From NCBI RefSeq assembly GCF_041248615.1, contig NZ_CP158426.1: a stretch of DNA of 64,000 nucleotides. The stretch is one strand, 5' to 3'. The translations under genes were made by a program, and so were the position numbers. Positions 4,243 to 57,968 of the stretch are shown in pieces. Source of the stretch: Escherichia coli. Its GTDB lineage: Bacteria > Pseudomonadota > Gammaproteobacteria > Enterobacterales > Enterobacteriaceae. The notes under the pieces were generated by a model. The model searched no databases. It worked only from the letters and a program-made list of their open reading frames with translations, and was not told the origin of the DNA. Every line of letters begins with the position of its first letter. Positions within the stretch are counted from its first letter, which is position 1.

Positions 4243-4563
4243 TTTTAGTCCATTTTGATAAAATACATAAACATAGATGGTAAGTAGAGCCAAAGGCCAA
4301 CTATGGAAAACTCAATCGGTAGTGTACATTGTAAGGTTATTATTGGTAAATATTATAGGAATACCCATAATCTAACAAAATTCAGATTATCCGTTGCAAA
4401 TTAGTCTGCCATTCGCTAATTGACGAAAGATAGCACAAGAAACGTTCGCTTCTGGCACAAAGCGGACGATCACTTATAAAAATGACCGCCCACCTTACGC
4501 CTTATTTCACTCGTTGCCCAAACTAGCCCCCATTAGAATGAATCCTCCTAGGGGCAACGTTTC

Positions 4564-4797
4564 TTAATGCAGCCAGCTGTCATCTTCCCACACTTTCTGC
4601 ATAATTTTCATTACTTGTTTTCTTTCTTCGTCCAGTTGCAGTCCGGTTAGTTCCACACCGTTAGAGCTACCTTTGCGGATACGAATTACCGTTTTGGAAT
4701 ACAGGGGGCGCAGATTGCGGTAAAGCTCGGATTCAAGGGCGTCCAGGGTAGACTGGCTAATCTTCTGCTCTTTATCGATCATTATTTCAATGCGCAT
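4564..4797 (-). CDS. DinI-family protein (resembles E. coli DinI and the DinI-like domain of phage 186 Tum)
   Basis: MRIEIMIDKEQ...LDALESEL...IRIRKG...LTGLQLDEERKQVMKIMQKVWEDDSW aligns by eye with DinI (MRIEV.IAK...IDAL..EL......V.VR...LSV.G...E...I.EILQETWE.ADDW). GAGGTG RBS 7 nt upstream of ATG at 4797; track ORF 4564-4869 is an upstream extension. Confidence 0.6.
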   Translation of the reverse strand: MRIEIMIDKEQKISQSTLDALESELYRNLRPLYSKTVIRIRKGSSNGVELTGLQLDEERKQVMKIMQKVWEDDSWLH

Positions 4798-5149: not shown

Positions 5150-7564
5150 TTAATACAGGTTCCGCCACTGATCATCTTCCTGCAAACGTTGGTTCCGATA
5201 GAAGATACGCAGGCCTGCTCCTGACGGAATACTGCCGCCACGAAGGAGTAAATAGACCTCTTTCTCGCTGCCATCAAATCCTCTGGACTTCAGTTCATAG
5301 ACAAGCTGCTGTCGCTGATGGTCTGTAATTCGCTGTTTGTAGTCTTTACGCCGTTTCGGTTTCACCAGGCGTAACCTTGCAGCCAGTTCCCGGCGCTCTT
5401 TTTTGCTCATACTGTGCAGGTATTCGTGCAACTCCTTGTCATCCATGCGGGTGATATCCGTTCTGGTATCTCCATCAGCTGATTTGTCTTTCCCTTGTTG
5501 GTACAAATTTTCAGCAAGGGGACAGTTATTGCCACGAGTCCAAGGGGCGCAAGCGCCCTGGTCGGCTGCCGCCTCCTGAACGTCAACGGCCTTACGAACC
5601 ATTTTCCACTTCACTGCATGAGTGCAGATCTTGCCCTCTGCAATGGGTGACCAGATGCCATAAATACGAATGCCGTGATCGCCATAGGCGGTCGGCTCTT
5701 CGTTAATTTCATAAGCAGTTCTGATGAGGTGATATTTGCGGGGAACCAGTACGCCGCCCTGCTTCATGATGTAAGTGGCAAAACAACCAGCATCAGCAGC
5801 AGCCAGGATTGCATCAAGGCGCGGGTTATCCAGTACCGGCGCACCTGCTTTTTTGTCCCCCTGTTGCCTTGCCGCCTGACCAGCCAGCAATCGCAGTTCA
5901 CGGTAAGCCTGACGCCCCGGAATGCCAAAGAAGCGGAATTGCTGAACACGATGCAGAGACGCCCAGGCATTAACGTATTCAGCGTTATCACGCAGGGATT
6001 TACCCGTTTCCTTGCTGATCTCGCCAGCCAGACCACGCCCGTCAATGTTCTTACTGATGTATTTCGCGATGTAGCTTGTTGGCGTACCTTTGCGCGGGTT
6101 TATCAGCTCAGACTTAAAGCGTGGTCCCGTGTTATTCCCCAGCTCCTCGCGGTCTTCACGAATGGCAAACTTACGCAATAAAGCAGTAATGGCGCGGCGA
6201 TCTTTTTTGCGCATAAAACACAACAGGTGCCAGTGAACTGTACCGTCATGATGCGGCTCAGCCACCCGCACGCCATACCACCGCAATCCGGCTTTGTGCA
6301 TCGCCTTACGAAATGCAGCAAACATGCCGACCAGATAATCACTGCTTTGTTTTACCGTCGCATTTGTCCAGGTTGGGTTGGGCCTGCCGTTATTTAGCGT
6401 GGAATGGAAACGTGACGGACAGGTGATGGTGTAGAAAACGGCGCAGTCACCGCGCATTTCCGCGATAAGCTCCAGACCTTTAACACAGGCCATCATCTCA
6501 TTGCGGCGATGCGCAGGGTTGCTGCTGCTGGCGTTTACCACATCCTCCATGTCCAGCGTGTCGCCGTCTTCGTTCACCAGTTCATGAGAACGGAAAAACT
6601 CCAGCGACTTACGGCGCTGCTCACGTTTATGCATCACGGCTTCATAGCTGACATAGGGGGATGCTTTTTTGCTAACCAGGCAGACAGCGCGCAACTGCTC
6701 TTCCCGCCATTCGCAACGCATCTTCCATAATTTCCGATACCACCAGTCGGCGCACAACATACGCGCCAGCGAACCCGGAATGAGTTCATAGGGCACGGGT
6801 TTACGGCGGTTTCTTTTCCGGCGGAGTTGCTCAAACGCAGGTGGGATGACATCCAGACGCAGGGTTTCCGCCGCCACCCTTTCCCATGTCTTGCGGATTT
6901 CTTCTGGCTTAACGTCATCGGTGGCATACAAATCGCCACAAGCTGCATCAAGGCACATGCTCATATGCGCAGCAACAAGGGTGGACAGGCGTTTCACCTG
7001 ATCCTGACTCATTTCAGGCAGAATCAGCAGGCCGTCCAGCCCTTCATGGCTTGCCATAAAGCGAAAAGAAGTGGATAGCTGACTGTCGCGTACATGCTCC
7101 AGCCGTTCCAGACATGGCTTAATCGTCTCACGCAAATAGCGGGAATAAGCCTTTGGCCTGCCAAGGCTACTGAAGTATTCAATACGTTGCATCAGCGGCT
7201 TGCTGATATGGGAGGGCTGGGCGCTGACGTCTGCCAGAATGACCATGTCCGGGTTAAAACGCTGCTGCTCATGCGCCAACTTTGCCCGGCTAATGAGCTT
7301 ATCCTGCTCCATTTCGCGCTGGACAGGATCACGGGATTCATTAAAGAAATAACGCTCCCAGACCTGATCACTCAGTGCCTCGCGGCGCAGTTGTTCCTGC
7401 TCGTTATCGGCAGCGTACAGAGTGATCAGGTTTGAAAGCGCAGAAACCGGCGCAACTTCCGCCGGGTCCAGATAAGGGTTAATAGCCTTTTTCGGGCTGT
7501 TCCATGAGAATGCTGCGGCGGCCTCGTTAAAGCCGCTGCAGTTGTTCATATCAGCATGGCTCAT
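5150..7564 (-). CDS. Phage replication initiation endonuclease (P2 gpA / 186 A family, rolling-circle)
   Basis: 804-aa ORF; size, early-operon position and C-terminal region resemble P2-family A proteins. Start overlaps the Dam stop by 4 nt. Confidence 0.8.
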
Positions 7565-22390: not shown

Positions 22391-23716
22391 ATGAGCAAAG
22401 TAACTCCCCAGCCGAAAATCGGCTTTGTTTCCCTTGGCTGCCCGAAAAACCTTGTCGATTCAGAGCGTATTCTCACCGAACTACGCACTGAAGGTTATGA
22501 CGTGGTACCGAGCTATGACGATGCGGACATGGTGATCGTCAACACCTGCGGCTTTATTGACAGCGCGGTACAAGAATCACTGGAAGCCATTGGTGAAGCG
22601 TTGAATGAAAACGGCAAGGTAATTGTGACCGGTTGTCTGGGGGCAAAAGAAGATCAGATCCGCGAAGTCCACCCGAAAGTGCTGGAAATCACCGGGCCTC
22701 ATAGCTATGAGCAGGTTCTGGAGCATGTTCATCACTACGTGCCAAAACCGAAACACAACCCATTCCTGAGCCTGGTGCCAGAACAAGGTGTGAAACTGAC
22801 GCCGCGTCATTATGCCTATCTGAAAATTTCTGAAGGCTGTAATCACCGCTGCACCTTCTGCATTATTCCGTCTATGCGCGGCGACCTGGTGAGCCGTCCG
22901 ATTGGCGAAGTGTTAAGTGAAGCGAAACGTCTGGTAGATGCTGGCGTTAAAGAGATTCTGGTGATCTCGCAGGATACTTCCGCCTATGGCGTTGATGTTA
23001 AACATCGTACTGGCTTCCACAACGGCGAGCCGGTAAAAACCAGCATGGTCAGCCTGTGCGAACAGTTATCGAAACTGGGGATCTGGACACGTCTGCACTA
23101 CGTTTACCCTTATCCGCATGTGGACGACGTCATCCCACTGATGGCAGAAGGCAAAATCCTGCCGTATCTGGACATTCCGTTGCAGCACGCCAGCCCGCGC
23201 ATTCTCAAACTGATGAAGCGTCCGGGTTCTGTAGATCGCCAACTGGCGCGCATCAAACAGTGGCGCGAAATCTGCCCGGAACTGACCCTACGCTCAACCT
23301 TTATTGTCGGCTTCCCTGGCGAGACGGAAGAAGATTTCCAGATGCTACTCGACTTCCTGAAAGAAGCGCGTCTGGATCGCGTTGGCTGCTTTAAATACAG
23401 CCCGGTTGAAGGTGCAGACGCCAATGCCCTGCCTGACCAGGTTCCGGAAGAAGTGAAAGAAGAACGCTGGAACCGTTTCATGCAGCTGCAGCAGCAGATT
23501 TCCGCCGAGCGCCTGCAAGAGAAAGTGGGCCGTGAAATTCTGGTGATTATCGACGAAGTGGACGAAGAAGGCGCGATTGGTCGCAGCATGGCAGATGCAC
23601 CGGAAATCGACGGCGCGGTTTATCTCAATGGTGAAACCAACGTTAAGCCGGGTGATATCCTGCGTGTGAAAGTCGAGCACGCCGATGAGTACGATTTGTG
23701 GGGTAGCCGGGTTTAA
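22391..23716 (+). CDS. rimO: Ribosomal protein S12 methylthiotransferase RimO
   Basis: 441 aa, radical-SAM CxxxCxxC (CNHRCTFC) plus MTTase N-terminal and TRAM domains; synteny. Confidence 0.9.
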
Positions 23717-23889
23717 TTAATCTTAAGGCAGATCTAACAAGGATATTGTTCTTCGATCTGCCTCTGCTACCCTTCCCGATGTCCTACCCTTACGCACAAA
23801 ATCCCCTGACGCATAAATCGAGAAAAATGAATCGTACTCGAGGCAACTCTCACTTTTTCACACCAAATTAAAGTTTTGATCGCAATTAC

Positions 23890-23926
23890 TTGAAATAAGC
23901 GTAATGGTTACTATAGTAAACATTAC
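23890..23926 (+). promoter_or_regulatory. Sigma70-like promoter (TTGAAA-16-TATAGT) overlapped by a 26-bp near-perfect palindrome: likely autoregulatory operator of the toxin-antitoxin operon
   Basis: Palindrome GTAATGGTTACTA/TAGTAAACATTAC at 23901-23926 (one mismatch) spans the -10 element; RBS AAGGA and ATG follow at 23942. Confidence 0.5.
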
Positions 23927-23941
23927 CACAAGGATGGATGT

Positions 23942-24328
23942 ATGGGTGTGTATAAGGCAAGACGATTCAGCCAAAGCACGAAAAAACTTGGTATTCACGA
24001 TAAAGTTCTCATGGCTGCCGCTGAAGAAGTGATGCAGGGCATATGGGAGGCTGATTTAGGTAGCGGTGTCATCAAAAAACGTTTACCCCTCCAACAAGGA
24101 AAGAGTGGTGGAGCCAGAACAATTATCTTTTTTAAATCAGCAAATCATGTGTTTTTTTATGATGGTTGGTCCAAGAGTGGTCTAAGCAGTAAAGGAACCA
24201 AAGAAATCGAAGATGATGAACTGGCGGCCTACAAAAAAATGGCAAATGCATTTCTGGCCTTTAGCAATAAGCAAATAGAGGATTTGATCGAAACTGGCTT
24301 TTTGATTGAGGTGAAAAATGAGCGATAA
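23942..24328 (+). CDS. HigB2-like (Gp49/RelE-superfamily) toxin of a type II toxin-antitoxin pair
   Basis: GSGVIKKRLPLQQGKSGGARTIIFF resembles the recalled HigB-2 core (GTGGLRKIR...GKRGGSRIIYYF); toxin-first order with an 11-nt overlap into an HTH gene; absent from this position in K-12 as recalled. Confidence 0.55.
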   Translation: MGVYKARRFSQSTKKLGIHDKVLMAAAEEVMQGIWEADLGSGVIKKRLPLQQGKSGGARTIIFFKSANHVFFYDGWSKSGLSSKGTKEIEDDELAAYKKMANAFLAFSNKQIEDLIETGFLIEVKNER

Positions 24329-24647
24329 ATTACAAATGATGCTGGAAGATGCAAAGGAACTGAATGCACTGGGCCTGATGTCTGATAGTGAAGTTGATGC
24401 CATTGCCGTCATGGTCAAAGCTCGTGAAGTCAGCGCCCGTATAGCCAAAGTCAAATCAATGACGGGTGAAGAGATCAAAGCCATCCGCACCCGATACGGC
24501 ATGTCACAATCCGTGCTGGCACATACAATGGGAATGTCAAAAGAAAGTGTCTCGAAATGGGAACGTAATGAAATAAAACCGAGCGGCCCGGCATTACGTA
24601 TTTTGAATACATTGGCAATAAAAGGGCCGGAAGTTTTTGCAAAGTAA
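24318..24647 (+). CDS. HigA-like XRE-family HTH antitoxin
   Basis: C-terminal helix-turn-helix (GMSQSVLAHTMGMSKESVSKWE); overlaps the toxin gene. Confidence 0.6.
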   Translation: MSDKLQMMLEDAKELNALGLMSDSEVDAIAVMVKAREVSARIAKVKSMTGEEIKAIRTRYGMSQSVLAHTMGMSKESVSKWERNEIKPSGPALRILNTLAIKGPEVFAK

Positions 24648-24677
24648 AATGTTTGCAAATGATTTACCACATTCATT

Positions 24678-24701
24678 AGTACCCCTTGATTAAGGGGTAC
24701 T
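24678..24701. terminator. Bidirectional hairpin between the antitoxin gene and dgcI (AGTACCCCTT-GATT-AAGGGGTACT)
   Basis: Perfect 10-bp stem read directly between two convergent genes. Confidence 0.5.
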
Positions 24702-24716
24702 AACACTATTCTAATT

Positions 24717-26045
24717 CTACTGCCAGCTAATCTGCGCCCTGCCGTTTTTCTTACTCTTATACAGCCGCTCATCCGCCAGCATTTTCAAGCGTTCGACGGT
24801 AGTACATTCATTTGAATGCGCTACACCGATACTGGTGCTTAAATTAATGCTTCCCACCTGGAAATGAACGATTTCTTTTAGAATCGATAGCAACTCTTCC
24901 AGCGTTCCACCCGTATAAATCACCGCAAATTCGTCACCGCCGAAGCGGTAGACTTTACCTTTATCTACCGGGATCTGTGATTTAAGGATTTTCACCACTT
25001 TCATCAACACTTCATCGCCCAGCAAATGACCGAAGGTGTCGTTGATGTTTTTGAATTTATCGACGTCAAACAGGCACAAATAACCGCCTTTTTCCGGTAG
25101 CGCTTTTAAATCTTCGTCAAAGGATTTTCTGCCCATCGCTTTGGTCAGGTCGTCCAGGAACGCCGAGTTATACAGACTGTAGAGTTTTTTGACATCGGCA
25201 GCCGAAAAGAAAAGCCCGCCATCCAGTACGCGTTCAAAATGGTTATTAATAATGGCTTCTTTCTCCACAATACCACGATTAATCACTCTGCGTACCAGAT
25301 AGAGGCAACTGACACCCGATATCACTGCCACCAATGCGGCAAAGAAAATAATCAATGTACAGACCCGCAAATAAACATCTTTTTTATACGCAAATACGTA
25401 CAATCCGGTCGGCAAATAGGCGAAGTGCTCCATCGCTTCCGAAACGGTGAAGATGGCGTTTTTAGCATTATATTCATCACCGGTCACCGGTTTACCGTTC
25501 TTAAACAGAGAGAACATCAGGTTCTCGCTATCCATCGCCAGCGATTTTGACAGTAAAGAAAAACGCTCCAGACCAAGCAAAAATATCAGACTACGATTAT
25601 GAGTTACCGGATAGAGGTAATAGACGAAGGTTTTACCGTCAAAAGAGATAAACCCTGTATTTTTGACATGTCGATACTTCACAATCTGCATAATATCTGC
25701 ACAATAATTTTTCTCGAACTCCTTTACCTGAATACATTCGTCACTGGAAATCAGATAAGGACCGACATCGTACAAATAAGAGGGTGAAAGCGAGTCGGCG
25801 TAAGCTGTGCGTAAGCCAACCAACAGCTGTTCCTCCGTGGGGTTTAGCGTGTTGATAAGATCAATTGCCACGCTACGCCGATATTCAGCAATATTTGCCA
25901 CCGCAAAAGCAGTATCAATAACGGACTGTTTCAGGCCATACACCCGTTCCTTTACCATTTGAGTGTAGATCCCGCAGGCAACTGCTGAAATCATGATAAA
26001 AATCAGCAGACTGACTGTAAGTACGAACTTATTGATTCTGGACAT
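24717..26045 (-). CDS. dgcI: Diguanylate cyclase DgcI (YliF), GGDEF domain
   Basis: 442 aa, N-terminal membrane/periplasmic region and RFGGDEF motif; synteny. Confidence 0.9.
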
Positions 26046-26052
26046 ACGTAAA

Positions 26053-28401
26053 CTACTCTTTTACTAATTTTCCACTTTTATCCCAGGCGGAGAACGGCAT
26101 GGGTTTCTGGTACAGATACCCCTGAGCCTGAACACATCCTAATTTGATTAATTCGCGCGCAACGTCTTCGCTCTCTACGCCTTCCGCAATCACCGGGATC
26201 CGGTTATAGCGTGCCAGATCGAAAATAATGCGCACAATTTTTCCCGCAGTACCGAAAATATCGCCGGTAAATTGTGAGTCCACCTTTATGCTATCTGGAT
26301 TAATTTCATAAAAACGTTTCAGGTTTGACAAACCGGTGCCAAAGTCATCAATCGATATCCGTACCCCTTGTTTACGCAGTTGTTCAATATTGAGATAAAA
26401 ATGTTCATTAATTCGCTCGATCACGGTTTCAGTGATCTCAACACAGAGGCTGTTCGCCTTCAGGCCATTTTCTTTCATGATGGTGGTAAAACGCTCATGA
26501 AAGTGTGGTTCGTTTAACTGCCAGGGCGAAACATTAATATGCAGTAAGAAATCATCCTTCAGCGACGCACGCTGACTAAAATGTCTGAATTCACCCATTG
26601 CCGTTTTAATAATCTGATAACCCAGCTCATTGATAAACCCGATATCTTCAGCAATGGTAATGAACTTTAGCGGTGAAATGATCCCCCGCTCCGCAGACAC
26701 CCAACGGCACAACGCCTCCGCGCCCAGAATGGCGCGGGTGTTAATATCAACGATCGGTTGATAGACGAGGAATAGTTCGCCAATTTCCATTGCATGGCGA
26801 ATATTACGCGCAATCCAGATATTCTCTTCTATTTCGTTGAGTTTCGCGTCATCACAGAAAATAAACTCGGAGAACATATGGTCACGGATACTGGAAATCG
26901 CCAGTTTCAGTTTTTCTGCGTAACTCCAGGCGTTTTCTCCCTGCAAAGGTTCACAAATGGCAGACTTATGGATGCGCAGATTGCGGTAGCCAAAGCTGCT
27001 GTCAAAATCGTTTATCATCGCTATTTTACGGGTAAATGTCTGTACATTTTCCCGGCACAGAAGTAAATAGAGATCGGCATTGAATGTCACGATATCGCAG
27101 CATTGCGCATATTTCTCGGCAATTCGCTGACACAATTTCCTGACGATTTTATTGCGTTCATCAACACCAAACACCGCTTCCACGGCTTCCAGACCACACA
27201 GTTTGATGATCCCCAAAGCCAGATACTGATTATTGTTGGACTCAATAATCGCCATATTTTTAATAAAACCGCTTTCCTGATCGTAAGAGATCAGTGAGAG
27301 CAATTTATTTGACCGTTCAATTTCGGCATCTTTCATTTCCGCGATCGAATTTTTGATGCTGATAATCTCTTTCGCATCGCCTTCGCGAATTTTCAGAGCC
27401 TCGATCTGATCCGTTGAGTCGGGCAAAAACGCCAGCGTATTAACCAGCTCGGTCATTTCAGAAAATTGCCGACGGAACACACGAGTGGTCATTAAATAAA
27501 CCACCAGCAATACGATAATAATGAAAGCAAACGGCAGATAAAAAAGTTTATCTGATGCGTTCAATAAATTACCGCCAGGATAATAAAAATAGATTTCGAA
27601 TAATGCGTTGTTTGGCACCGCTGATGTTTTTTCGATATATTCAGTATCGACAGAATCAATAATATTATAATTACCTTCGCTATTATAAATAATCAGTTTT
27701 TCACGCGCGAGTTGATTCTTGGCAATGATCTCATGGCCTTGTTTCAAAAATAGAACTTCATCATTAGCGCTGATTTGATCAAGATACTCGTTCAGATATC
27801 GCCAGTTTAAATCGACATGTATTTTATCCACCGCTAACAAATCGTGATCTTTGCCGTTGATGCGTAGCGTAAAAGAGATACATTTTTTACCCGGACGATC
27901 AAAGCAATTGTAGGCCGGATTCCAGCTGTTGTTAGAGTCATCTGAAGCCACCGACCATGGTCGTTTCGATGGATTAAAATCGGCAAAAATAACCCGCCCT
28001 GACTCGTCGACAAGCGGTCCATTTACTTCTTCCTGATGATAAACAACGATTTTATCATTCGCCCTCCGCGAAAAGAGATAATATTTATTATCATCAAGTA
28101 CCAGTCCCACCGAGTCTAAAAATGGCATCATTTCCATTTTAAGGATCACAGCGCGTTGAATCTCCTCTGTATTTTTTAATAAATACAGTGAGTCCTTTAA
28201 TGTCAGGGCCGAACGTTCAATATCTTTAAAGAAATAGCCAACGTTTTTCTGAATAAGTTCAAAGCGGCTATCGGCACGTTTTACCGCGCGTTCCGATACC
28301 AGTTGATAGTTAATGATGAAAAAAAGGCCAATAAATGACAGTGCTGCCAATAAAAATAAAATTATCAGCCTTATCTTTATCTTTTCGTATAAACTCAGCA
28401 T
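26053..28401 (-). CDS. pdeI: c-di-GMP phosphodiesterase PdeI (YliE), EAL domain
   Basis: 782 aa after trimming; EAL-domain motifs; synteny. Confidence 0.85.
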
Positions 28402-28578
28402 GTTAATACATTTAACAAAATAACTGTCTGAACGCTGTGCCGCTGCAAAAACAGTCCCTTGCTGCGGCTTTTTAACCAAATTACCCGATTCTACAAAATC
28501 AGCAGAAAGTTACAACACTTGCTTAGGGCAATAATTTCCTGTGAGGTGATTACCCTTTCAAGCAATATTCAAACGTAA

Positions 28579-56278: not shown

Positions 56279-57166
56279 ATGCCTGGTTCATTACGTAAAA
56301 TGCCGGTCTGGTTACCAATAGTCATATTGCTCGTTGCCATGGCGTCTATTCAGGGTGGAGCCTCGTTAGCTAAGTCACTTTTTCCTCTGGTGGGCGCACC
56401 GGGTGTCACTGCGCTGCGTCTGGCATTAGGAACGCTGATCCTCATCGCGTTCTTTAAGCCATGGCGACTGCGCTTTGCCAAAGAGCAACGATTACCGCTG
56501 TTGTTTTACGGCGTTTCGCTGGGTGGGATGAATTATCTTTTTTATCTTTCTATTCAGACAGTACCGCTGGGTATTGCGGTGGCGCTGGAGTTCACCGGAC
56601 CACTGGCGGTGGCGCTGTTCTCTTCTCGTCGCCCGGTAGATTTCGTCTGGGTAGTTCTGGCGGTTCTTGGTCTGTGGTTCCTGCTACCGCTGGGGCAAGA
56701 CGTTTCCCATGTCGATTTAACCGGCTGTGCGCTGGCTCTGGGGGCCGGGGCTTGTTGGGCTATTTACATTTTAAGTGGGCAACGCGCAGGAGCGGAACAT
56801 GGCCCTGCGACGGTGGCAATTGGTTCGTTGATTGCAGCGTTAATTTTCGTGCCAATTGGAGCGCTTCAGGCTGGTGAAGCACTCTGGCACTGGTCGGTTA
56901 TTCCATTGGGTCTGGCGGTCGCTATTCTCTCGACCGCTCTGCCTTATTCGCTGGAAATGATTGCCCTCACCCGTTTGCCAACACGGACATTTGGTACGCT
57001 GATGAGCATGGAACCGGCGCTGGCTGCCGTTTCCGGGATGATTTTCCTCGGAGAAACACTGACACCCATACAGCTGCTGGCGCTCGGCGCTATCATCGCC
57101 GCTTCAATGGGGTCTACGCTGACAGTACGCAAAGAGAGCAAAATAAAAGAATTAGACATTAATTAA
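56279..57166 (+). CDS. rhtA: Threonine/homoserine exporter RhtA (DMT family)
   Basis: 295 aa from MPGSLRKMPVW; synteny. Confidence 0.9.
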   Translation: MPGSLRKMPVWLPIVILLVAMASIQGGASLAKSLFPLVGAPGVTALRLALGTLILIAFFKPWRLRFAKEQRLPLLFYGVSLGGMNYLFYLSIQTVPLGIAVALEFTGPLAVALFSSRRPVDFVWVVLAVLGLWFLLPLGQDVSHVDLTGCALALGAGACWAIYILSGQRAGAEHGPATVAIGSLIAALIFVPIGALQAGEALWHWSVIPLGLAVAILSTALPYSLEMIALTRLPTRTFGTLMSMEPALAAVSGMIFLGETLTPIQLLALGAIIAASMGSTLTVRKESKIKELDIN

Positions 57167-57335
57167 ATTTACATTTCTGCATGGTTATGCATAACCATGC
57201 AGAATTTCTCGCTACTTTTCCTCTACACCGTCTTTATATATCGAATTATGCAAAAGCATATTTATTCCGAAAATTCCTGGCGAGCAAATAAATAAGAATT
57301 GTTCTTATCAATACCTCTAACTGATTGAATTTTAA

Positions 57336-57968
<633 letters not shown>

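Follow-up and report, generated by a model that had tools for sequence, protein, structure and literature searches.

The closest solved folds for the two proteins described here are those of the Vibrio cholerae HigB-2/HigA-2 pair (VCA0468/0469; PDB 5JAA, 5JA8 and 8A0X). In this pair, which is a superintegron cassette, the toxin gene comes first, and the antitoxin combines an N-terminal neutralising part with a C-terminal XRE helix-turn-helix (HTH) domain. VcHigB-2 belongs to the Pfam family PF06296, and Pfam treats HigB-2 and Gp49 as distinct families (PMC11980606). Among the relatives found, the closest one tested by experiment is ToxP/AntitoxP (CBUA0028/CBUA0027), an overlapping toxin-first operon carried by the Coxiella burnetii plasmid QpH1, where it acts in plasmid maintenance. 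ToxP is toxic, inhibits translation and is bound by its antitoxin, for which promoter binding and autorepression have been demonstrated (PMC10098735). In the 'relE-yiaG' modules (Gerdes 2025, PMC11980606), a PF06296 toxin is likewise encoded upstream of a HigA2-like antitoxin made of two helices and a C-terminal XRE HTH. MqsR/MqsA of Escherichia coli is also toxin-first, with a toxin of family PF15723 and an antitoxin that carries an N-terminal zinc CxxC domain. The Acinetobacter baumannii system called 'HigBA2', whose Pfam family is unverified, is not counted here among the members of the family.

The locus under study is an ordinary, RefSeq-annotated toxin-antitoxin (TA) system of the HigB2/HigA2 kind that roughly one in five E. 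coli genomes carries. It lies in a 64-kb window (the whole stretch of E. coli DNA that was analysed), amid core chromosomal genes. We consider it very probable that it is an autorepressed chromosomal type II TA operon; most probably it has long been resident, and K-12-type strains have lost it. In the searchable literature, no experiment or paper on this E. coli pair was found.

The pair is flanked by rimO (22391-23716, + strand) and dgcI (24717-26045, - strand), beyond which lies pdeI (26053-28479, - strand). In the literature, ECs0915 is yliG/rimO. As the initial annotation had proposed, two genes form the module, a toxin gene followed by an overlapping gene for an XRE-HTH antitoxin. The toxin ORF (23942-24328, + strand) starts with ATG, encodes 128 aa and is preceded, at 7 nt, by a Shine-Dalgarno sequence AAGGA (23930-23934, + strand). 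The antitoxin ORF (24318-24647, + strand), also starting with ATG, encodes 109 aa, and its own Shine-Dalgarno sequence GAGGTG (24308-24313, + strand) is located within the 3' end of the toxin gene; both ribosome-binding sites are predicted from the sequence. The two ORFs overlap by 11 nt, an arrangement that recurs in 26 homologous loci, and because of this overlap the two genes may be translationally coupled. The antitoxin stop codon is 69 bp from the end of the convergent dgcI. A promoter scan of the toxin gene returned no internal antitoxin promoter at the threshold, and a scan of 23500-24900 against Rfam gave no match at E<=1. As is typical of type II TA operons, the genes are small, adjacent, co-oriented and overlapping, and both are under purifying selection.

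Over residues 1-124 the toxin matches positions 1-120 of the 120-position PF06296 model (Pfam scan, E 7.9e-33, 113.7 bits), and PF06296 is found in all 69 homologues that have any precomputed Pfam domain (69/69). The protein had initially been called "Gp49/HigB2-like". The HigB2 half of this name holds, whereas the Gp49 half (PF05973) must be dropped, with no PF05973 match in the Pfam scan even at E<=10. An NCBIfam scan assigned the toxin to no family, and the sole match in a PHROGs search was the unnamed family phrog_5869 (E 1e-5). A PDB search with the single toxin sequence gave no match at E<=1. In the PDB, a family profile built from 22 sequences matched V. cholerae HigB-2 chains only (E ~5e-5). 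The AlphaFold2 model of the toxin (pLDDT 85.7, pTM 0.81) points in the same direction: in a Foldseek search of the PDB, ranks 1-5 are all VcHigB2 (probability 1.0, TM 0.48-0.58), followed by other RelE/ParE toxins. Sequence identity to V. cholerae HigB-2 is just 12-16% over the structural alignment, and the toxin here is 18 aa longer. The present toxin is 35.5% identical to ToxP over 96% of its length. The 'relE-yiaG' toxins have extended disordered N-termini, whereas the present toxin has no such extension, the Pfam model starting at residue 1. Its N-terminal MxxYK is conserved among the homologues.

Residues K45, R47, R59 and K78 of the toxin correspond to K49, R51, R64 and K84 in the list of VcHigB2 catalytic residues (PMC10098735), and all four are invariant in 22 homologues. 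At the position of the fifth, VcHigB2 Tyr82, the toxin has another aromatic residue, Trp76. Trp is found here in 20 of the 22 aligned homologues, including the whole enterobacterial clade, whereas Coxiella ToxP and P0069 keep Tyr. From its sequence and predicted structure, then, the toxin is a full-length member of the HigB-2 family with a RelE/BECR fold, keeping four of the five catalytic residues.

Chromosomal TA pairs often decay. It is conceivable, though we rate it as very unlikely, that the locus is a decaying or domesticated remnant, in which the toxin has lost its toxicity and repression of its own promoter is all that the HTH protein is kept for. The replacement of Tyr82 by Trp would fit such decay, as would truncated toxin genes (73-122 aa) in several E. 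coli lineages and a partial copy in strain BS-01. However, the Trp is common to the whole enterobacterial clade and thus not a recent lesion, and the other four catalytic residues do not vary among the 22 homologues. Moreover, neither gene is truncated in the window or in any of the full-length sampled genomes (59/59). In comparison with O157:H7, dN/dS is 0.05 for the toxin and 0.00 for the antitoxin; in comparison with UBA5654, a metagenome-assembled genome (MAG) of Enterobacteriaceae, it is 0.08 and 0.07, respectively. The toxin values (0.05-0.08) are thus as low as those of the antitoxin. These observations argue against such decay.

The HMM search also bore out the XRE-HTH assignment of the antitoxin, with Pfam HTH_3 at residues 53-94 (E 3.4e-9). 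When the antitoxin family profile was compared with the PDB, VcHigA2 came first (E 4.2e-11), in an alignment that covers residues 47-102 only. The antitoxin model (pLDDT 90.4) superposes on the C-terminal domain of VcHigA2 (5J9I) at 1.1-1.3 A, with a TM of 0.82. The N-terminal extension of about 46 residues does not match the N-terminus of VcHigA2 in the family profile alignment. In the model it forms two predicted helices (residues 2-17 and 23-43, pLDDT 82-95), whereas the VcHigA2 N-terminus is disordered. The predicted protein thus has two helices at its N-terminus and an XRE HTH at its C-terminus, in the manner of HigA-2 and YiaG. AntitoxP aligns with it from end to end at 28% identity. Scores against NCBIfam antitoxin families were weak: 26.7 for YiaG (PRK10072, cut-off 110) and 36.7 for NadS (cut-off 60). 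The HTH resembles that of MqsA (TIGR03830, 47 bits; PF15731, E 5e-4; a Foldseek match to MqsA). Membership in the MqsA family was nevertheless rejected: the TIGR03830 score of 47.1 bits is below the cut-off of 61.8 and comes from the HTH half only (profile positions 51-122), the 109 aa contain no Cys, and the zinc CxxC domain of MqsA is missing. The toxins differ as well, being PF06296 here and PF15723 in MqsR. Antitoxin residues E76, S79, K80 and E85 differ from all four base-contacting residues of VcHigA2, so the operator binding of VcHigA2 is not transferable residue by residue.

Within the interval, the site that most resembles a promoter is a predicted sigma-70-type promoter, TTGAAA-16 nt-TATAGT (23890-23917, + strand), with a consensus score of 10/12. 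Its -35 element TTGAAA is at 23890-95 and its -10 element TATAGT is at 23912-17. A 26-bp palindrome GTAATGGTTACTA|TAGTAAACATTAC (23901-23926), with spacer-free arms at 23901-13 (GTAATGGTTACTA) and 23914-26 (TAGTAAACATTAC), is complementary at 12/13 pairs. It begins 5 nt past the -35 element and spans the -10 element. Given the position of TATAGT, the -10 element lies at the centre of the dyad, in agreement with the initial description of a -10 element embedded in a near-perfect palindrome. Alternatively, the palindrome may be seen as a pair of 11-bp dyads, GTAAnnnTTAC, with centres 15 bp apart. Operators of MqsA are short 4-N3-4 dyads, to which GTAA-N3-TTAC may be compared.

The palindrome is both rare and deeply conserved. 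Only 3 zero-spacer palindromes with at least 12/13 pairs occur in the 64-kb window, and none occurs in 20 shuffles. Its core, GTA-N4-TTACTATAGTAA-N4-TAC, is also present upstream of the genes in 21 distinct diverged homologous loci, the toxins of which are just 44-74% identical and the surrounding upstream DNA of which is unalignable. In an alignment of the E. coli, UBA5654 and Kluyvera loci, the TGAAA and TATAGT blocks are kept, and no homology is present upstream of the -35 element. Across the 21 operator variants, high information is found at positions 1-3, 8-19 and 24-26. One 26-bp dyad and two 11-bp dyads, like all the symmetry models, fit these variants about equally, since the information lies in the four conserved GTA/TAC blocks. 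The V. cholerae HigA-2 operator has another sequence, TGTACGC-N5-GCGTACA, but the footprinted VcHigA2 operator is a dyad in the corresponding place relative to -35 and -10 (PMC11006873). Since the palindrome is conserved in 21 diverged loci and placed like the mapped VcHigA2 operator, the autoregulatory role first ascribed to it is credible, and we regard it as a putative operator to which the antitoxin probably binds. It should be noted that the -10 hexamer occupies the inner part of the dyad, and part of the conservation could therefore stem from the promoter alone.

The conserved core motif of the putative operator occurs once in the 64-kb window (0.00 expected) and is still unique when 3 mismatches are allowed. 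This bears on the c-di-GMP genes dgcI and pdeI, which the initial annotation rightly placed directly beside the pair. That the HTH protein regulates them, which would make the adjacency functional, is extremely improbable. The adjacency itself, with the convergent dgcI ending shortly after the antitoxin gene, is all that speaks for such regulation, while the window holds no second operator core. In UBA5654 and two Kluyvera loci the pair adjoins gsiD, with neither dgcI nor pdeI, and conversely, dgcI and pdeI are kept without the TA pair in 79% of E. coli. The position described at the outset is correct; a functional link finds no support.

The autorepressed TA operon would work as follows. One sigma-70 promoter (23890-23917) would drive a bicistronic mRNA. 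Its first gene would yield a RelE-fold, ribosome-dependent mRNA endonuclease of the HigB-2 family (PF06296), and its second gene, overlapping by 11 nt, would be translated from its own strong ribosome-binding site. The two N-terminal helices of the antitoxin would hold and neutralise the toxin, while a dimer of its C-terminal XRE HTH would bind the dyad spanning the -10 element and switch the operon off. If the antitoxin were lost, the toxin would be released and translation would stop. By analogy with V. cholerae HigBA2 and Coxiella ToxP/AntitoxP, we infer toxicity, neutralisation, operator binding and antitoxin turnover as the trigger.

The same mechanism could in principle serve anti-phage defence by abortive infection, with a phage removing the antitoxin and the toxin shutting down translation; such a role would supplement the TA mechanism rather than supplant it. 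A defence function has been discussed for RelE/ParE-superfamily toxins (PMC11980606), the module is polymorphic for presence or absence within E. coli, and a distant homologue (37% identical) is carried by Escherichia phage PhiR12_3. On the other hand, the toxin has no match in PADLOC-DB 2.0, and the antitoxin matches nothing there but generic HTH models. The neighbours are housekeeping genes, with no defence island, and the long syntenic residence described below would be unusual in fast-turnover defence cargo. Defence as the main role of the pair therefore appears quite unlikely.

A survey of the rimO-dgcI junction found the TA pair in 1138 of 5426 complete E. coli genomes, including O157:H7, where RefSeq annotates it, and the K-12 junction in 4283. 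The interval had been described as short in K-12, and indeed only 46 bp separate rimO from dgcI there; the pair is absent from K-12, as the initial annotation required. In an exact comparison with a K-12 derivative, the allele-specific segment in the window is 996 bp long (23722-24717), whereas E. coli of the K-12 type has a hairpin of 42 bp in its place. The segment extends into the dgcI stop codon, which is TAG here versus TAA in K-12. With 996 bp standing in place of 42 bp, the difference is a replacement and not a clean insertion, and neither mobile-element genes nor target duplications were found at its breakpoints.

Outside E. coli, the TA pair is found convergent with gsiD in Kluyvera sichuanensis, K. 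georgiana and the MAG UBA5654. Between the window and EDL933, dS is 0.067 and 0.043 for the TA genes, 0.049 for dgcI and 0.027 for rimO. Between the window and UBA5654, dS is 1.84 and 1.96 for the TA genes, 1.96 for gsiD and 1.17 for rimO, although these between-genus values are saturated. The synteny on the gsiD side and the TA dS equal to that of the flanks point to long residence and to loss in K-12-type strains. Most probably, then, the module has resided in the gsiD-rimO interval for a long time, and the initial term "insertion" is doubtful.

The reverse history, in which the pair was recently acquired by horizontal transfer at the rimO-dgcI junction and the K-12 state is ancestral, is possible but seems the less plausible one. 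The short junction in K-12 and in the 4283 genomes would agree with it. In addition, an outgroup search through DgcI homologues reached an Escherichia-like contig (DgcI 78% identical) in which dgcI and rimO are 40 bp apart without the TA pair; this one contig is not decisive. Homologues are also carried by plasmids of Providencia, Moellerella, Pantoea and others, but the closest plasmid copy is just 58% identical. The DNA homology with other genera is bounded precisely by the -35 element on one side and the antitoxin stop codon on the other, like a cassette. Yet no mobile-element genes or target duplications were seen at the breakpoints, the gsiD-side position is common to three other species in two genera, and the dS of the TA genes equals that of the flanks on both time scales.

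Pushing the old-resident reading further, we may tentatively suggest that the pair has been inherited vertically at the gsiD-side locus since before the split of Escherichia, Kluyvera and UBA5654, and that its four-block operator binds two antitoxin dimers; this combined proposal is speculative, and we would not presume it to be correct. If it were, the TA pair would be under purifying selection as strong as that on many housekeeping genes and would be no drifting selfish cassette. Two 11-bp dyads flanking the -10 TATA would be a repression geometry unlike the single-dyad operator of VcHigA2, and the 21%/79% split within E. coli would be a long-standing polymorphism, produced by loss of a module that is useful to the host.

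The importance of the present results is slight: a TA pair that has so far been annotated only generically is now assigned to its correct family, HigB-2 instead of Gp49, and has a concrete predicted operator. The locus could serve as a natural presence/absence system for the host role of a long-resident chromosomal TA pair, and its conserved four-block operator offers a testable contrast to the well-studied V. cholerae HigA2 operator.

Finally, two hairpins border the module. The first lies just 3' of the rimO stop codon (23726-23763, + strand), with a 9-bp perfect outer stem AGGCAGATC/GATCTGCCT and a folding energy of -16.2 kcal/mol (z -3.9). It has no T-tract and may form the rimO 3' end or a terminator. 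The second (24676-24703) lies between the convergent stop codons of the antitoxin gene and dgcI. It had been described as a perfect 10-bp hairpin after the operon; the pairing is indeed perfect, but the stem is 12 bp long (arms 24676-87 and 24692-703), with a 4-nt loop. This hairpin lacks a T-tract and was not flagged by the terminator scan. It folds with a predicted energy of -17.7 kcal/mol (z -3.5) on the + strand and -23 kcal/mol (z -4.9) on the - strand, and different hairpins occupy the corresponding place in homologous loci. It too may be a terminator or mark a 3' end.

The two genes lying between rimO (window 22391-23716, plus strand) and dgcI (24717-26045, minus strand) are assigned, from their sequences, to the HigB-2/HigA-2 family of type II toxin-antitoxin (TA) operons, with a putative autoregulatory operator. 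A toxin ORF of 128 aa (23942-24328, plus strand) is followed in the same orientation by an antitoxin ORF of 109 aa (24318-24647), the two overlapping by 11 nt; re-reading of the sequence shows that the initial annotation was correct in reporting a two-gene module here. The pair is already known to the extent that RefSeq labels it generically, as in O157:H7 strain EDL933 ("type II toxin-antitoxin system RelE/ParE family toxin" and "helix-turn-helix domain-containing protein"), and that its family includes solved structures and tested members. A literature search found no study of this E. coli pair. Its points of mild interest are an apparently long syntenic residence and a putative four-block operator.

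In a Pfam scan the toxin had a single significant match, PF06296 "RelE" (E = 7.9e-33, residues 1-124), which is the family of Vibrio cholerae HigB-2 (VcHigB2), Gp49 being the separate family PF05973 (Gerdes, PMC11980606). PF05973 was absent from the scan. Thus, of the earlier description "Gp49/HigB2-like", the second half holds and the first does not. A search of PDB with the single toxin sequence gave no match, and a profile of 22 homologues matched VcHigB-2 chains only (E about 5e-5). In the alignment of this profile, K49, R51, R64 and K84 of VcHigB2 (catalytic residue list from PMC10098735) correspond to toxin K45, R47, R59 and K78, invariant across the family, and VcHigB2 Tyr82 corresponds to toxin Trp76. 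The five best Foldseek PDB matches of the AlphaFold2 model (pLDDT 85.7) are all VcHigB2, followed by YafQ, HP0894, HigB1 and RelE. The closest tested relative is Coxiella burnetii ToxP (CBUA0028), 35.5% identical to the toxin over 96% of its length, which has been demonstrated to be toxic, to inhibit translation and to be bound by its antitoxin, with repression of the promoter shown as well (PMC10098735). The possibility that the pair serves in defence is opposed by the lack of a PADLOC match for the toxin and by the housekeeping genes around it.

Residues 53-94 of the antitoxin form an XRE helix-turn-helix. Its profile (18 homologues) matched V. cholerae HigA-2 (VcHigA2) best in PDB (E = 4e-11), with P22 C2 and MqsA ranking lower. 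In the model (pLDDT 90.4) two helices (residues 2-17 and 23-43) make up the N-terminal part, and the C-terminal domain can be superposed on its VcHigA2 counterpart at 1.1-1.3 Å; this architecture resembles that of the "YiaG-like" antitoxins paired with PF06296 toxins (PMC11980606). The base-reading residues of VcHigA2, R68, E71, N72 and R77 (PMC11006873), align in the profile with E76, S79, K80 and E85. Since all four positions differ, the operator sequence is expected to differ as well. Within the clade of this antitoxin the recognition helix SKESVSKWER is almost invariant.

The sole strong promoter-like site upstream of the toxin is TTGAAA (23890-23895), 16 nt and TATAGT (23912-23917). As had been noted initially, its -10 is embedded in a 26-bp near-perfect palindrome, GTAATGGTTACTA|TAGTAAACATTAC (23901-23926); 12 of 13 pairs are complementary and the -10 lies at the centre. 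Zero-spacer palindromes of such quality occur three times in the 64-kb window and in none of 20 shuffles. Another of the three, TTCTGCATGGTTATGCATAACCATGCAGAA (57175-57204), is perfect over about 30 bp and is intergenic, one ORF ending before it at 57166 and another beginning after it near 57336. The placement of the operon palindrome relative to -35 and -10 is that of the single dyad footprinted by HigA2 in V. cholerae, which begins past the -35 and runs over the -10 (PMC11006873). Stronger evidence for an operator comes from conservation. The motif was compared at 21 distinct homologous loci (Kluyvera, Siccibacter, Enterobacter, Pantoea, Pectobacterium, Xenorhabdus, Photorhabdus, Proteus, Providencia, Morganella and others), whose toxins are 44-74% identical, and in most of them it lies 13-25 nt before the toxin start codon. 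Positions 1-3 (GTA), 8-19 (TTACTATAGTAA) and 24-26 (TAC) have high information content, the two spacers little; upstream of the motif region no alignable DNA was found, even among E. coli, the Enterobacteriaceae MAG UBA5654 and Kluyvera. Because the inner block includes the -10, part of its conservation is explained by promoter function, and the outer GTA/TAC blocks are the cleaner operator evidence. The palindrome fits two descriptions, a single 26-bp dyad or a pair of 11-bp dyads (GTAAnnnTTAC) with centres 15 bp apart; the two units are inverted copies in some loci and direct copies in others, and counts over the 21 loci fit both models without discriminating. A putative autoregulatory operator of the TA operon is a well-supported reading of the palindrome.

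The 64-kb window has a single copy of the core motif, against zero expected. The location beside dgcI and pdeI pointed out initially is real as adjacency. A functional tie to these genes, for which adjacency was the sole support, was rejected: no second copy of the motif lies in the window, relatives have the pair without these genes, and most E. coli have the genes without the pair.

The pair was earlier described as an insertion absent from K-12, where rimO and dgcI are indeed only 46 bp apart (MG1655 derivative). By exact comparison, 996 bp (window 23722-24717) stand in place of 42 bp of K-12, so the event is a replacement rather than a clean insertion; the replaced segment extends into the dgcI stop codon (TAG in the window, TAA in K-12). 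A presence/absence survey at this junction, as suggested initially, found the segment in 1138 of 5426 complete E. coli genomes, O157:H7 included, nearly always single-copy and chromosomal (identity at least 99% in 700 carriers, 95-99% in 436), and an uninterrupted K-12-type junction in 4283. The locus is essentially biallelic in E. coli.

Both genes are under strong purifying selection, with dN/dS of 0.05 (toxin) and 0.00 (antitoxin) between the window and EDL933 and of 0.08 and 0.07 between the window and UBA5654. Synonymous divergence follows that of the neighbours at both time scales: against EDL933, dS is 0.067 for the toxin, 0.043 for the antitoxin, 0.049 for dgcI and 0.027 for rimO; against UBA5654 it is 1.84, 1.96, 1.96 for gsiD and 1.17 for rimO, the large values being saturated. 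In UBA5654, Kluyvera sichuanensis and K. georgiana a homologous pair is convergent with gsiD, about 50-65 bp from its 3' end, and in UBA5654 rimO (protein 96% identical) lies upstream of the pair. The E. coli order is gsiD-pdeI-dgcI-TA-rimO. Comparison of these orders places the pair in the same interval; pdeI and dgcI (window 24717-28479) are missing from it in UBA5654 and the two Kluyvera species, where TA adjoins gsiD directly, and therefore look like a lineage-specific addition. The segment flanks contain no mobile-element genes and no target duplications. The matching dS, the gsiD-side synteny and these flanks make a recent insertion at the junction rather unlikely, even though the values against UBA5654 are saturated and an Escherichia-like contig (DgcI 78% identical) has a dgcI-rimO gap of 40 bp with another hairpin and no TA. 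The same two points weaken the reading towards which we lean, that of an old resident, vertically inherited over a long time and lost in K-12-type strains.

The perfect hairpin reported after the operon is present between the convergent antitoxin and dgcI stop codons (24676-24703), with a stem of 12 bp, not 10, and a 4-nt loop. It folds at -17.7 kcal/mol (z -3.5) on the plus strand and -23 (z -4.9) on the minus strand, with no T-tract on either. In EDL933 a C replaces A at 24692, the loop-proximal base of the right arm, one of 12 differences over 1000 bp; it unpairs the top of the stem, with no compensating change. A second hairpin (23726-23763, -16.2 kcal/mol) lies 3' of the rimO stop codon. 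All junction versions have a strong hairpin between the convergent genes, differing each time: the 42 bp of K-12 form a 13-bp GC-rich one (CAGGCCGGGCAAA..., -23 kcal/mol, 4518-4563 of the junction sequence L001), the TA-less contig (L090) has CCCGGCGA...TCGCCGGG (5330-5369), and two of the UBA5654 and Kluyvera loci (L005, L006) are different again. The structure is conserved and the sequence not.

The pair is decaying in places. The window copy is intact, but some E. coli lineages have toxin ORFs shortened to 73-122 aa (clusters P0013, P0016, P0024, P0025, P0034, P0038 and P0052). Strain BS-01 (H30/H191) has a partial TA copy, 93% identical. A second Morganella psychrotolerans copy (L031) and that of Phytobacter massiliensis (L050) retain an intact operator motif but have interrupted toxin frames (54 and 103 codons), and a simple ORF rule found no antitoxin ORF in either; both copies are probably pseudogenes. 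Among "plasmid" copies only one has a toxin with 100% identity; it is in a 730445-bp E. coli PLSDB entry [GenBank:CP088669.1] and is probably a chromosomal fragment or mis-assigned replicon rather than plasmid-borne. Contamination by E. coli DNA almost certainly explains a 1198-bp contig of a "Collinsella sp." MAG [GenBank:JAIJJM010000872.1] that matches the TA-dgcI segment of E. coli at 99.6% identity. Finally, Escherichia phage PhiR12_3 [GenBank:PV340552.1], from E. coli ECOR13, encodes a 37% identical toxin homologue (4340-4657), annotated as hypothetical.
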